From assembly GCA_014630515.1 (NCBI GenBank), contig GCA_014630515.1_4091.1: a DNA stretch of 21,344 nt; one strand, 5' to 3'. The translations under genes were made by a program, and so were the position numbers. Every line of letters begins with the position of its first letter. Positions within the stretch are counted from its first letter, which is position 1. Positions 4,075 through 20,879 of the stretch are shown piece by piece. Origin of the DNA: a phage. The notes beneath the pieces are model-generated. The model searched no databases, was not told the origin of the DNA, and worked only from the letters and a program-made list of their open reading frames with translations.

Positions 4075-4166
4075 GATACACTTCCGCACCCTATGGGTCA
4101 GTGAGTTATCTCTCAATGGATATATAATAGCAAAGGGACTGACCGGAGTCAATCCCTTTTTTAATC
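4075..4166 (-). repeat. repeat element B: conserved leader motif, embedded promoter, GC hairpin with T-run
   Basis: core GCACCCTATGGGTCAGTGAG; hairpin AAAGGGACTGACCGGAGTCAATCCC plus T6; minus-strand TTGACT, 17 bp, TATTAT (4124-4152). Confidence 0.6.
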
Positions 4167-7031: not shown

Positions 7032-7075
7032 GTACTTTTTAAAAATAGTTTTCAGTACTAGCCACCAGCTAACAA

Positions 7076-7160
7076 TAGATACATTTATGCACCCGGTGGG
7101 CTGATTTGTTTCTATGCGTATATAATAGCAAAGGGACTGACCGGAGTCAATCCCTTTTTC
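7076..7160 (-). repeat. repeat element C: conserved leader motif, embedded promoter, GC hairpin with T-run
   Basis: core GCACCCGGTGGGCT; hairpin AAAGGGACTGACCGGAGTCAATCCC plus T5; minus-strand TTGACT, 17 bp, TATTAT (7122-7150). Confidence 0.6.
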
Positions 7161-8220: not shown

Positions 8221-8409
8221 TTACATATTTTTAATTAATTCTTTATCTAAGCGATAGCGTACATTATTAATGGTAACAGCATTATTTTTAATGCTACGCT
8301 GTACTGGCCCACCAGCAAGAACAAACGTTGCTTTATTGCCCCGAACTATGATAGCACTTCCAGGATTACCGAAATCATCTTGTACTAAAATACTTGATAA
8401 GTTTTCCAT
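8221..8409 (-). CDS. hypothetical protein (62 aa)
   Basis: ATG 8407-8409 lies 8 nt after GAGGA; the ATG at 8413-8415 is too close to the SD. Confidence 0.6.
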   Translation of the reverse strand: MENLSSILVQDDFGNPGSAIIVRGNKATFVLAGGPVQRSIKNNAVTINNVRYRLDKELIKNM

Positions 8410-8455
8410 TTTCATTTCCTCTTAGTAGGGGAAGACGTTTCCTCTTGATGTAAGT

Positions 8456-8484
8456 ACTATAACAGTACTGAAAACTAAATGCAA
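8456..8484 (-). promoter_or_regulatory. early sigma70-type promoter
   Basis: minus strand TTGCAT, 17 bp, TATAGT. Confidence 0.5.
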
Positions 8485-8487
8485 GTA

Positions 8488-8844
8488 CTATGATAAAATC
8501 ATGATAGGATATTCACTATCGATCAGTACCTCGAATCCAAAACCTTCGTACCATTCTTTAAGATTAAAGGCGTTATCTTCTCCCGTATCGCATTCTAAGA
8601 TGATACAATCTGAATCATCGGCGGCATCGATAAAGGCATTCATTAATTCGTTACCTTCACCATTGCCCCGACTATCAGGATCAACATAAAGAGAATCAAT
8701 AAACGCTACACGGTCATAATCAAGATCCGGTGCAATGATTCCACGTTTAACAAACCAGTACTGCAATTGTGCTACTTTGCCCTGTACTTGATAACCAGTG
8801 ATCTCGCCATTGTCAGTAGTACGCGTGATATGATGTATTCCCAT
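8488..8844 (-). CDS. GNAT-family N-acetyltransferase-like protein (118 aa)
   Basis: ATG 8842-8844; AGGAT SD; translation has GNAT motif-A-like YVDPDSRGNGEGNELM and C-terminal WYEGFGFE. Confidence 0.6.
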   Translation of the reverse strand: MGIHHITRTTDNGEITGYQVQGKVAQLQYWFVKRGIIAPDLDYDRVAFIDSLYVDPDSRGNGEGNELMNAFIDAADDSDCIILECDTGEDNAFNLKEWYEGFGFEVLIDSEYPIMILS

Positions 8845-8873
8845 GATTTCTATCCTCAGTTAAGATATAAAAC

Positions 8874-8901
8874 ATTATACACTATCTTTCAGTACTGTCA
8901 A
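8874..8901 (-). promoter_or_regulatory. early sigma70-type promoter
   Basis: minus strand TTGACA, 16 bp, TATAAT. Confidence 0.6.
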
Positions 8902-8908
8902 TTACTTT

Positions 8909-9166
8909 TTATCTCATAGATCTATGCCAACAATTACGCGGATCTCTTTTAAAAGTACTATCATGATCCTCCTGGCAAGTGATACAGTACTTACACCCCT
9001 TAACGGCCTGGCGGCGATTCTCAGGGATTTTATCGCCGCAGTCGAGGCAATGTATCAGTGATTCTATTTGTGCGTTAATTTGCGTTCTAGCGTGGTTAAC
9101 AGCGGCCTGAATCACTGCGTTAATCTCGTCTTGCTCGGCCCCATCTTTTGTGAATCCTACAGCCAT
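8909..9166 (-). CDS. TraR/DksA-family C4 zinc-finger protein (85 aa)
   Basis: ATG 9164-9166; translation has CLDCGDKIPENRRQAVKGCKYCITCQ (CxxC, 17 residues, CxxC with conserved Arg). Confidence 0.65.
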   Translation of the reverse strand: MAVGFTKDGAEQDEINAVIQAAVNHARTQINAQIESLIHCLDCGDKIPENRRQAVKGCKYCITCQEDHDSTFKRDPRNCWHRSMR

Positions 9167-9464
9167 TATTTTAACCTCATTATAAAAATACTATAGTACT
9201 GTAACGCGACAAGTATATTACTTGTTCTTACTTTTTCCAATCCATACGACACGACATATTCATCCCCATATGTGCGGATCACCACACCATGAAAATTTTT
9301 ATACACTTCCACTACTAATCATAACCTTTCGTCTAACCAACTGCATAGAATTATACTACTTTACGCAAATTGATCAAGTATTGATCAGATCATTTTTTGA
9401 TCAATATTAGACAGCTACATTTGTGCACCCTATGGGTTAGTGACGTTCTCGTCTTGATGTAAGT

Positions 9465-9493
9465 ATTATGCCAGTACTGGCATAATTTGTCAA
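9465..9493 (-). promoter_or_regulatory. sigma70-type promoter followed by conserved leader motif (element E)
   Basis: minus strand TTGACA, 17 bp, CATAAT; leader 9421-9460 carries the GCACCCTATGGGTTAGTGAC core; the nearest downstream gene is ~290 nt away. Confidence 0.5.
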
Positions 9494-9497
9494 TAGA

Positions 9498-9695
9498 TTA
9501 TTTTAACTTTTTTCTGTCATTGATTAATGCTTTCAGTACTATACTAATAACTTGCAATGATTCATCAATGACTATGAAATTATTCTCTTTCATTAGATGA
9601 TAGTTACCATTGATTGTATATTCTAATGAGTATTGTTTACGTTTAATTTTTGATAATGTATCAATTTGTTTTTGTACTGATTTCATGCTAATCAT
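9498..9695 (-). CDS. hypothetical protein (65 aa)
   Basis: ATG 9693-9695; AGGA SD 9 nt upstream; no clear own promoter. Confidence 0.55.
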   Translation of the reverse strand: MISMKSVQKQIDTLSKIKRKQYSLEYTINGNYHLMKENNFIVIDESLQVISIVLKALINDRKKLK

Positions 9696-9758
9696 TGTTA
9701 AACGTCCTGTAATGCATTCTAACGAGTTAAACGGTTTAGTACTGGCATTGTATAGGGT

Positions 9759-9794
9759 AAATGATTAAAGCCCACCAGCGTTAACCAGTGGGCT
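9759..9794 (-). terminator. rho-independent terminator (minus strand)
   Basis: minus strand AGCCCAC-loop-GTGGGCT (7-bp stem) followed by TTTAATCATTT; 3 nt after stop of 9801..9944. Confidence 0.55.
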
Positions 9795-9800
9795 ATATTC

Positions 9801-9944
9801 TTACATCTTGCGGATAATCTTAACAGTATCTTTCACCGATTTACCGTTTTGCTGGCATTGCTCGATCATCGCGTATTGTTCTGCGGTCAGATCCTCGCCA
9901 GTTTTTGCCAGTACTGCGTCGATGAATGAATCCAGTGCGATCAT
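9801..9944 (-). CDS. hypothetical small protein (47 aa), not in ORF track
   Basis: ATG 9942-9944; AAGAGAG SD; own promoter 9989-10016; stop TAA 9801-9803. Confidence 0.55.
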   Translation of the reverse strand: MIALDSFIDAVLAKTGEDLTAEQYAMIEQCQQNGKSVKDTVKIIRKM

Positions 9945-9988
9945 TTTGTTTCTCTCTTAGGTTAAGTTAACTACTGTTTATAAAACTT

Positions 9989-10016
9989 ATTATACAGTAC
10001 TATCAATCATTGTCAA
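9989..10016 (-). promoter_or_regulatory. early sigma70-type promoter
   Basis: minus strand TTGACA, 16 bp, TATAAT. Confidence 0.6.
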
Positions 10017-10043
10017 TAGATTTAATAGTACTGGTAATATATT

Positions 10044-10223
10044 TTAGCGGTAGTCGTCGTATGCTTTATTCACCTGGCGAATGTAACTTTCAAAGGCTTC
10101 GTCTACCGTTTCATACTCCCGAACATAATCACCATAGGAAACTACATACATCCCTTTTTGATCTTCAAACGTCATGATGATAGAATCCAGGCCGATGATT
10201 TCAGTTTTTGCGATAATAGCCAT
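10044..10223 (-). CDS. hypothetical protein (59 aa), paralog of 14113..14325
   Basis: ATG 10221-10223; AAGGA SD; track start 10295 lies in promoter; shares MAII start and Y.VS...Y....VD.A..Y block with 14113..14325. Confidence 0.6.
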   Translation of the reverse strand: MAIIAKTEIIGLDSIIMTFEDQKGMYVVSYGDYVREYETVDEAFESYIRQVNKAYDDYR

Positions 10224-10266
10224 TTTAGTATTCCTTAAATTAATATGCGTTGTCTTGATAAAAGTT

Positions 10267-10295
10267 ATTATGCCAGTACTATCAAACGTTGTCAA
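10267..10295 (-). promoter_or_regulatory. sigma70-type promoter (CATAAT subtype)
   Basis: minus strand TTGACA, 17 bp, CATAAT; same cassette as 14065-14093 and 14361-14389. Confidence 0.55.
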
Positions 10296-10314
10296 TAGTA
10301 CTGTGATAATATTT

Positions 10315-10527
10315 TTAGTTAATGATAGTCAGTGTAAAATTGTAATCCCCTGCCTGGTATAGTACTTTATCGCCGAACGTGCCAACACGTTTCATATTGC
10401 AATAGATACCCATAACACTTTTTACATCTTTGATATTCCGAACACCTGTGATATCCTTGTTGAAATTTTCATGATCAGAAAATAAAACTTGTTTTGCATT
10501 TTTCAGTACAGTGCGGATATTAGCCAT
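10315..10527 (-). CDS. hypothetical protein (70 aa)
   Basis: ATG 10525-10527; GAGGA SD; track start lies in leader. Confidence 0.65.
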   Translation of the reverse strand: MANIRTVLKNAKQVLFSDHENFNKDITGVRNIKDVKSVMGIYCNMKRVGTFGDKVLYQAGDYNFTLTIIN

Positions 10528-11805: not shown

Positions 11806-11892
11806 TTACACTTCCGCACCCGGTGGGCTAGTGAGCTATCTCTCAATGAATATATAATAGCAAAATGGCTGACCGAAGTCAACCACTTTTTT
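11806..11892 (-). repeat. repeat element D: conserved leader motif, embedded promoter, variant hairpin
   Basis: core GCACCCGGTGGGCTAGTGAG; hairpin TGGCTGACCGAAGTCAACCA with compensatory changes relative to A-C; T6 on plus strand; minus-strand TTGACT, 17 bp, TATTAT (11854-11882). Confidence 0.6.
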
Positions 11893-16258: not shown

Positions 16259-16293
16259 GTACTTTAATATAAAAGTATTTGAAAAAAAAAGTC

Positions 16294-16322
16294 TTGACAA
16301 CTGCATCCAGTACTGGCATAAT
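16294..16322 (+). promoter_or_regulatory. plus-strand sigma70-type promoter
   Basis: plus strand TTGACA, 17 bp, CATAAT; only clear plus-strand promoter inside the gene array. Confidence 0.5.
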
Positions 16323-16328
16323 ACTTAC

Positions 16329-16425
16329 ATAAAGACGAGATAGTCACTAACCCACAGGGTGCATAGATCCGTCTATTAAATGATTCAGTACTGCAAAATA
16401 AAGGGGATCGTTTGATCCCCTCTGT
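16329..16425 (+). ncRNA. candidate small RNA (plus strand) carrying the conserved leader motif
   Basis: starts ~7 nt after the 16294-16322 promoter, contains GAGATAGTCACTAACCCACAGGGTGC, ends at hairpin 16402-16421; no SD-preceded ORF. Confidence 0.3.
16393..16421 (-). terminator. rho-independent terminator (minus strand)
   Basis: minus strand AGGGGATC-aaac-GATCCCCT followed by TTTATTTTG; 5 nt after stop of 16427..16648. Confidence 0.65.
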
Positions 16426-18444: not shown

Positions 18445-18526
18445 ATAGATACATTCCCGCACCCTATGGGCTATCGCCTTGTGTCCGGCTTGTAAGTATT
18501 ATCTCACTAAGCCGGATAACGGTCAA
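18445..18526 (-). repeat. repeat element G: promoter with conserved leader motif and flanking inverted repeat
   Basis: minus strand TTGACC, 17 bp, GATAAT (18498-18526); inverted repeat CCGGCTT/AAGCCGG brackets the -10; leader has CCCATAGGGTGCGGGAATG. Confidence 0.5.
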
Positions 18527-20141: not shown

Positions 20142-20239
20142 AGTTCCATCAAGTCGAGAAAGACTCAAGCCCACCGGGTGCATAGTTACGCCCAAAATTC
20201 AGTACTGAAAAAAATTTTTAAAAATATCCGTCCAGGCCG

Positions 20240-20359: not shown

Positions 20360-20480
20360 TTGATTTAGCCGTCTATACTTCCAGACGTGTAACCATCTAG
20401 CCGTTTAGCCGTCCAAACGTCTAGCCATCCAGCCATCCAGAAATCTAGACGTTTAGCCGTCTAGATGGATAGCCATCTTT
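20360..20480. repeat. iteron-like direct-repeat array
   Basis: 7 copies of YAGCCRTY within ~115 bp (TTTAGCCGTC at 20364, 20404, 20452); also CTAGACGT/CTAGATGG and ACTTCCAGAC repeats; preceded by A-rich tract 20341-20360. Confidence 0.5.
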
Positions 20481-20879
20481 ACTTCCAGACTTCTGGAGGG
20501 CTAGACATATCTACGTCCAAAATCCATCCAGGGTAACTACGCCCAAAATCCGTCAGTACTATACCATAGATCTATCTTTTGAAAGGGAGTATTCAGTACT
20601 GCCATCATAGCCCTCACTATGTTACCCTAGGAGGATGAAGACTATCATGTAGTACTGAATACTGTTAGAGGGAATCCACCAGCACAAGCTGGTGGCATAA
20701 TGCTTTAGATTAAAATCAGTACTGACACCATTCTGTTAATATCAGTACTGTTATTACGATTTTCATATGAGGTTCAAAAAGATGTACCACCACAGGAGGA
20801 ACTATCTTTTCTGTACTGTCTCACGACAGGAGGTAGAGTAAATGAATTGTTCGCAGCAACTCATCTCTCTATGTAGAAC

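Follow-up and report, generated by a model that had tools for sequence, protein, structure and literature searches.

A tight cluster of four GATC sites in the DNA of a jumbo coliphage appears to belong to a promoter. The sites lie over the UP-element position and the -35 hexamer of a conserved putative promoter, here termed P2, in a register that is fixed across genera. The reading we prefer, which we hold with about even confidence, is that the cluster is an operator-like, Dam-methylatable control region of this secondary sigma70 early promoter. P2 would drive a two-gene unit that lies inside a dispensable cassette and encodes a 48-aa protein with a predicted AP2-like fold and a DksA-like zinc-finger protein. 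The original prediction had offered origins or regulated promoters as the usual settings of such dense Dam-site clusters, and as to the promoter it stands. The locus is most likely a new example of a Dam-site-containing operator/promoter control region; the Asteriusvirus, CBB, Sharanji, JP4 and fEgEco12 papers make no mention of the locus, of GATC clusters or of early-promoter mapping.

The terminal repeat and its GATC cluster

The DNA analysed (21,344 nucleotides, here the window) shows 91–95% identity, in the 2-kb region around the GATC cluster, to the Asteriusvirus phages SHEFM2K, JP4, UB, PBECO4 and 121Q. In phage vB_Ec-M-J, the stretch that matches the window sits within an annotated direct terminal repeat of 21,525 bp. 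Because the coordinates of the window map end to end onto this repeat, in reverse orientation, the window appears to be essentially the whole direct terminal repeat, of about 21 kb, of an Asteriusvirus jumbo coliphage of the 121Q/PBECO4 group. Terminal repeats of about 21 kb are also described for fEgEco12, where the ends were confirmed via restriction mapping (PMC13070987).

All annotated genes in the stretch examined are on the minus strand, and most of them are equipped with a stereotyped sigma70 promoter of their own, which is present in at least 23 copies in the window. In order, the elements of this early promoter are an A-tract, GTAC, TTGCAA or TTGACA, a spacer and GTATAAT, followed by a 5′ hairpin, and AGTACT is often found inside the spacer. 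The timing of the dozens of tiny early genes carried in the 21-kb repeats of Rak2/121Q-type jumbo phages is almost unstudied, and the GATC-box locus provides a compact, testable handle on it.

The GATC sites begin at positions 9372, 9383, 9388 and 9399 and span 31 bp (9372–9402). Three of the four are within TTGATCA(A), with TTGATCAA at 9370–9377 and 9397–9404 and TTGATCA at 9381–9387, so that the arrangement first noted is confirmed by the coordinates; the fourth site reads AGATCA. The layout is that of two abutting GATC-N7-GATC units, 11 bp from start to start, which form a proximal and a distal box pair (Table 1).

The cluster is real and beyond chance. The window has 87 GATC sites in total, or one per 245 bp, and the second-densest set of four takes up 115 bp. 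A run of four sites in 31 bp or less was found in only 2 of 2000 dinucleotide-preserving shuffles of the window (P ~0.001), and uniform placement of 87 sites in the window gives P = 0.014 for the cluster. The genome-wide count was made with TH47, a related genome of 352,450 bp that is assembled whole and unannotated. GATC is depleted in TH47 (581 sites in the whole 352-kb genome, observed/expected 0.47), and the homologous locus, with five GATCs in 70 bp (94619–94688), is the densest cluster of that genome. Local GATC density, the comparison with background on which the original prediction had staked itself, thus exceeds the background both in the shuffled window and in TH47.

In the window as a whole the observed/expected ratio for GATC is 0.84, and the repeat-equivalent region of TH47 has about 4 GATCs per kb vs about 1.4 per kb elsewhere. 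As an observation in its own right, the early (terminal-repeat) region is exempt from the GATC avoidance seen across the rest of TH47.

The sequences that surround the GATC cores are also distinctive. On a given strand, about 11% of GATCs genome-wide are followed by AA, whereas TGATCAA flanks are kept in about 14 of the 17 boxes that were read from aligned lineages. This difference suggests that recognition of the boxes extends beyond the GATC core, with the proviso that A-rich box flanks are also expected from an UP element alone.

Promoters, genes and the dispensable cassette

A promoter had been claimed at 9465–9493, and this claim is borne out. The promoter, P1, is conserved in all aligned Asteriusvirus relatives. 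Its 54-nt leader corresponds to columns 49–103 of alignment A1 and shows no difference in the five relatives that span it, whereas the next ~200 nt are only ~77% identical. The leader contains a small hairpin, GACGAGAACGTC, at 9442–9453 and a repeat-specific element, CCCATAGGGTGC, at 9425–9436. RNA folding of the P1 transcript (9458..9300) gave a non-significant z-score of -1.5, and a terminator scan of 8400–10400 gave no match. The scan for tRNA and tmRNA also had no match, and no Rfam RNA family was found, either in the whole window at the gathering threshold or in 9150–9520 at E<=1.

P2 is a putative secondary sigma70-type early promoter, known from its match to the consensus. It lies 115 bp downstream of P1, with a start inferred near 9343, and its -10 is invariant across alignment A1. 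A weight matrix made from 23 standard early promoters of the window puts P2 in register with the family (ATACTTGATCAAT...GTATAAT against GTACTTGCAAT...GTATAAT). The total weight-matrix score is low because P2 is without the family's leader hairpin, but P2 has the -35 and -10 hexamers, the 16–17 nt spacer and the register by which family members are recognized. A second promoter would in fact be expected at this position, because three other places in the window show the same succession, in which an upstream promoter and its CCCAYNGGGTGC leader are followed, ~45 nt further on, by a standard promoter. At the GATC locus, the second promoter of this layout is the GATC-box promoter P2.

Table 1. 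Features of the GATC-box locus, copies of the leader element in the window, and GATC positions in five sequences, counted relative to the start inferred from the -10
Feature	Position	Strand	Remarks
Dispensable cassette between 11-bp direct repeats GTTAAAATAAT	9165..9507		Deleted in phAPEC6
DksA/TraR-type zinc-finger gene	8909..9166	-	Pfam PF01258, E 1e-11; PHROG 54
48-aa protein gene	9166..9312	-	GTG start; PHROG 38664; 121Q gp293 homolog
Putative promoter P2	9350..9377	-	TTGATC (9377..9372), 16 nt, TATAAT (9355..9350); promoter scan 10/12 vs sigma70 consensus
Proximal box pair, inverted repeat GATCAATACTTGATC	9372..9386	-	GATCs at about -43/-32 from inferred P2 start; overlaps P2 -35 hexamer
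Distal box pair GATCAAAAAATGATC	9388..9402	-	GATCs at about -59/-48 from inferred P2 start, bracketing the distal UP-element position
P1 leader, 54 nt	9411..9464	-	Identical in all aligned relatives covering it
Promoter P1	9465..9493	-	TTGACA (9493..9488), 17 nt, CATAAT (9470..9465), preceded by TG; promoter scan 11/12
CCCAYNGGGTGC copies	2170-2181, 4086-4097, 7089-7100, 9425-9436, 11816-11827, 18459-18470	-	
CCCAYNGGGTGC copies	16351-16362, 20170-20181	+	
GATC positions, window	-59, -48, -43, -32		
GATC positions, 121Q	-59, -48, -32, -3, +9		
GATC positions, recombinant L025	-59, -48, -32		
GATC positions, Hallingskeid	-59, -48, -16, -5		
GATC positions, metagenomic sequence L014	-58, -47, -16, -5		

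The region had been described as untranslated, with no open reading frame preceded by a Shine-Dalgarno sequence. This fails for 9166–9312, where a conserved minus-strand gene encodes a 48-aa protein; the start codon of the gene has GAAAGG 12 nt ahead of it. The start is GTG (TTG in 121Q), and the combination of this start codon with GAAAGG at that distance is probably the reason why the gene was overlooked. The reading frame is annotated in 121Q (gp293) and PBECO4, and the protein matches its PHROG family with an E of 4e-32. Relative to the 121Q clade, the gene has 10, 7 and 24 differences at codon positions 1, 2 and 3, respectively, and 13 codons with synonymous differences only. Homologs of 47–62 aa are found in Erwinia phage Hallingskeid, Pectobacterium phage CBB and metagenomic contigs, and tblastn with the Hallingskeid-type protein revealed no further genera. 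The plus-strand frame 9222..9410 had been dismissed as a gene, and rightly so: about four in-frame stops are present in each 121Q-clade sequence, which rules it out.

Structural modelling of the 48-aa protein gives a high-confidence model made up of a beta-sheet plus a helix. In the model the antiparallel beta-sheet packs on a C-terminal helix, as in the AP2/ERF-type fold, and the best PDB match is an AP2 DNA-binding domain. Foldseek matches to the PDB were uninformative, at E>0.8. The protein has no Pfam match at E<=1, a PDB sequence-profile search returned spurious matches only, and BFVD yielded uncharacterised small phage proteins only. The TAA stop of the 48-aa gene overlaps the ATG of the DksA-like gene (TAATG), and because of this overlap the two genes are probably co-transcribed as one unit.

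The cassette is dispensable, since phAPEC6, a viable isolated phage, does not have it. The flanking repeats (plus strand, attattttaac) are at 9165–9175 and 9497–9507, and phAPEC6 is without the ~332 bp exactly between them. The deletion takes out P1, the leader, the boxes, P2 and the 48-aa gene, and in phAPEC6 the DksA-like gene is fused directly behind the upstream gene. Several other Asteriusvirus isolates have only a short promoter-element match elsewhere in the genome. The dispensability of the cassette therefore makes it unlikely that the region is a sole origin or packaging site, and phAPEC6 provides a natural deletion mutant for comparison with cassette-carrying phages. It can also be observed that each of the two 11-bp repeats is the end of one gene's ribosome-binding region; the phAPEC6 junction shows how the stereotyped gene junctions of the terminal repeat permit the loss or gain of a cassette.

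Box conservation and the proposed control of P2

The intergenic stretch is ~77% identical between two Asteriusvirus clades, vs 91–92% for the flanking genes, and three GATCs and the P2 -10 are invariant between these clades. Two additional GATCAA boxes follow closely after the -10 in the 121Q clade, and the number of boxes ranges from three to five across lineages. The distal pair is held at the UP-element position (-59/-48 or -58/-47) in all five tabulated sequences, and the remaining boxes shift in position yet always overlap the core promoter. These other boxes often form a 15-bp inverted repeat, GATCAA-N3-TTGATC, which covers the -35 hexamer in the window, the putative start in the 121Q clade and the -10 in the Hallingskeid lineage.

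Hallingskeid and six related metagenomic sequences encode a small protein that is ~35% identical to the 48-aa protein. In this lineage the leader element and three to four GATC boxes (usually four) precede the small gene. The boxes, the -35 sequence TTGAC(T/A) and the -10 sequence AATAAT are invariant in the seven sequences, and the intervening spacers vary freely. A fixed register together with conserved flanks is the mark expected of boxes that bind a protein and belong to a promoter.

The link between protein and boxes is not universal, because in the CBB/GAP32 lineage the 48-aa gene is behind a plain promoter without boxes. Nor is the full four-site grammar obligatory. A metagenomic Asteriusvirus recombinant (L025/L027; OERM01000014.1, OERD01000139.1) keeps three GATCs without the inverted-repeat pair, and two other sequences (L032/L033) have lost one GATC core. 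The crossover in the recombinant is inside the box region, with 121Q-like sequence upstream of the P2 -35 and PBECO4-like sequence downstream. Apart from the locus itself, the 352-kb TH47 genome has a single GATCAA-N3-TTGATC, at ~26415–26431 and intergenic between two minus-strand ORFs; no convincing promoter was recognised at this repeat, nor any evidence for a regulon.

In the operator-like reading of the cluster, a protein that occupies the TGATCAA boxes would gate the access of RNA polymerase to P2, and it may also block read-through from P1. One candidate for the binder is a sequence-specific phage factor, with the adjacent 48-aa protein as the obvious choice, and a second is host SeqA on hemimethylated DNA. 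Because there is a Dam site at the centre of each box, occupancy would be expected to follow the methylation state, and hence whether the genome has replicated. Methylation sensitivity of the boxes is plausible. As in Dam-sensitive promoter switches, at least two GATCs are in or near the core promoter. The E. coli hosts are Dam+, and TH47 encodes a Dam-family methyltransferase (PF05869, E 3.5e-33); tblastn with an approximate E. coli Dam query found no match in TH47. Between the two candidates, the conserved flanks and the operator-like placement tilt the balance towards a sequence-specific binder rather than SeqA/Dam, with methylation perhaps as a modulating layer.

Consensus sites of known DNA-binding proteins were also looked for in the box region. 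The best OxyR half-site match is 7/10, a score reached in 40% of 81-bp background windows; Fur reaches 11/19 (51% of 81-bp windows) and IHF 7/9 (70% of background windows), CRP is at the background level, and the best DnaA match, 6/9, equals the background. An FNR score of 8/10 is matched or exceeded by 4% of 81-bp windows, but the FNR site was rejected, as the score arises only through half-sites within TTGATCAA and the second half-site is poor.

Operators of the lambda OR/OL style have palindromic boxes over a promoter plus an upstream auxiliary site. The putative operators described here resemble them in having boxes over the -35, -10 or +1, in an upstream pair set off by an integral number of helical turns and in the presence of an adjacent small gene as a candidate regulator. 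They differ in that the candidate has a predicted AP2-like beta-sheet and not a helix-turn-helix or ribbon-helix-helix, and in that a Dam site is at the centre of every box.

By analogy, the closest described architecture is that of the phage P22 gtr promoter, where two GATC pairs are found inside OxyR half-sites, and methylation and protein binding are mutually exclusive (PMC2909390). Four GATCs present as two pairs in a promoter region are shared with gtr, and also with the agn43/opvAB OxyR-Dam switches, and the most proximal GATC is in the -35 region, as it is in gtr (~-33). However, the pairs here are 11 bp and abutting, whereas those of gtr are 13 bp with ~50 bp between pairs, and there is no OxyR half-site here. 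In addition, the locus is part of an early cassette of a lytic jumbo phage, whereas gtr is a phase-variation locus of a lysogen.

A different explanation needs no phage binder. SeqA has a high affinity for clustered hemimethylated GATCs about one turn apart and silences after replication (PMC2691817, PMC13076061), and after the first round of replication it might bind to the hemimethylated pairs and shut P2. The two abutting GATC pairs, at 11 bp, suit the need of SeqA for sites one turn apart on the same face (PMC2691817), and in this they resemble the clustered GATCs of oriC and the dnaA promoter. As GATC is scarce elsewhere in the genome, the locus would be a prime SeqA site; the methyltransferase of TH47 also fits with such a switch, and in 121Q some GATC cores are kept where the flanks are altered to CGATCAA and GGATCAA. 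The locus nevertheless differs from oriC and the dnaA promoter in having no DnaA boxes or 13-mers, only four to five sites, and conserved TGATCAA flanks that SeqA does not need. The flanks are in fact far more conserved than either Dam or SeqA requires, and the proximal pair moves among the -35, -10 and +1 without ever leaving the core promoter, behaviour that would rather suit an operator. In addition, variants with three GATCs exist, and the terminal repeat as a whole has no GATC depletion. A switch that depends on the host alone is thus unlikely.

In a variant of the host-only explanation, methylation of the GATC in the -35 would directly alter RNA polymerase binding. Mu mom, IS10 and P1 cre have promoters whose activity depends on GATC methylation in or upstream of the core; mom uses OxyR, and the other Dam-sensitive promoters have a single GATC within the core promoter hexamers. 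The locus described here differs in that it has multiple boxes with a longer conserved motif.

A stricter form of the operator-like reading assigns the boxes to the 48-aa protein itself, as operators of a minimal stand-alone AP2-fold autoregulator whose binding is set by methylation. The protein would then distinguish incoming DNA, which is fully methylated, from replicated DNA that is hemimethylated. We regard this form as doubtful. If true, however, it would mean a replication-coupled early-gene switch on the sole GATC cluster kept in a GATC-avoiding genome. More generally, Dam/SeqA-type epigenetic control has been described chiefly for phase-variable genes of bacteria and prophages; if the boxes respond to methylation, a virulent jumbo phage would be seen to use it in its early programme as well. 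Boxes indifferent to methylation would simply make the region an accessory promoter under operator control.

The GATCs might also have no function of their own. P2 would then be an ordinary early promoter that happens to have GATC in its -35 (TTGATC) and in its A-rich UP region, with the sites multiplied by small local duplications of TTGATCAA. TTGATC comes close to the -35 consensus, UP subsites coincide with the A-tracts that separate the boxes, the cassette is dispensable, and the box number varies from three to five, all of which would be in keeping with this explanation. On the other hand, the register of the distal pair is kept across lineages whose small proteins are only ~35% identical, the boxes are invariant where the neighbouring spacers are variable, and the cluster persists in a GATC-avoiding genome, with the low shuffle probability (~0.001) given above. 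It is rather unlikely, then, that the GATCs are accidental.

The origin half of the original prediction did not stand up. A replication origin is improbable, whether it is modelled on oriC, with AT repeats rich in GATC, or on T4, where a promoter is combined with an unwinding element; the AT-rich box region would be the place where transcripts from P1 or P2 prime replication. A strong promoter is indeed followed by an AT-rich stretch with GATC repeats, and these phages have T4-like replication genes (PMC5259590). But the DnaA box TTWTNCACA is absent from both strands of the whole window, the skew shows no clear inflection at the cluster, the boxes are in register with a promoter immediately followed by a gene, and the region is deleted in the viable phAPEC6, with other Asteriusvirus records showing only the short promoter-element match elsewhere. 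Redundant T4-like origins would still be compatible with the deletion.

A P1-like pac or terminase site, with cleavage under the control of Dam methylation, is very improbable: P1 pac consists of seven TGATCA/G hexamers with Dam sites, arranged 4+3 around the cleavage site, and an IHF site, in ~160 bp (PMC10028697), and although repeated TGATCA hexamers, the methylation-dependent recognition units of P1 (PMC10028697), are present here as well, they form one cluster (three TGATCA and one AGATCA in 31 bp) that is not divided 4+3 about a cut site, the IHF match does not exceed the background, and the cluster is in a promoter in mid-repeat, ~9.4 and 12 kb from the fixed repeat ends (verified in fEgEco12, PMC13070987), and is absent from the viable phAPEC6.

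Other repeated elements of the terminal repeat

The leader element CCCAYNGGGTGC is present in eight copies in the window, and all ten copies in TH47 are inside the repeat-equivalent region at 88.8–104.9 kb. Each copy is found ~27–40 nt downstream of a strong sigma70 promoter and is followed by ..TGTATCTAT. The copies are often preceded by a hairpin of 3–4 bp, the sequence of which varies in a compensatory-looking way; RNAalifold analysis of the eight leaders gave a weak consensus with no compensatory pairs. The element could be a nut/put-like leader signal, the core of a small RNA or a protein site.

One plus-strand unit, at ~16290–16425, combines a TTGACA-17-CATAAT promoter with the CCCACAGGGTGC leader and, after it, a terminator-like hairpin, GGGGATCgtttGATCCCC, that has a T-rich tail. 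The genes opposite it are on the minus strand, and its product may be an antisense small RNA of ~95 nt. A similar promoter-element-terminator unit is present in a Hallingskeid-like contig (L024/L028).

The unit AAAAAGGGATTGACTCCGGTCAGTCCCTTTGCTATTATAT is repeated three times, in the minus-strand reading, at 2156–2240, 4077–4161 and 7075–7159. It has a GC-rich terminator-like hairpin and also contains a TTGACT-17-TATTAT promoter, and the same design is found in Erwinia phage Hallingskeid. Perhaps these units act as a combined terminator and promoter.

Two short words have unusual frequencies. AGTACT is present in 133 copies in the 21.3-kb window, mostly in promoter spacers and upstream regions, which is roughly 20 times a back-of-envelope composition estimate (~7); it could be a common operator for the global shut-off of early promoters. 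GCGC is wholly absent: neither the window (44.6 copies expected) nor the 352 kb of TH47 (172 expected) contains it. Strong counter-selection seems to be at work, of the sort that a restriction or modification system specific for GCGC would exert.

A run of imperfect 8-bp periodic repeats (CGTCTAGC/CATCCAGC...) occupies 20370–20521, close to an end of the terminal repeat, and may be linked to the repeat boundary or to terminase recognition.
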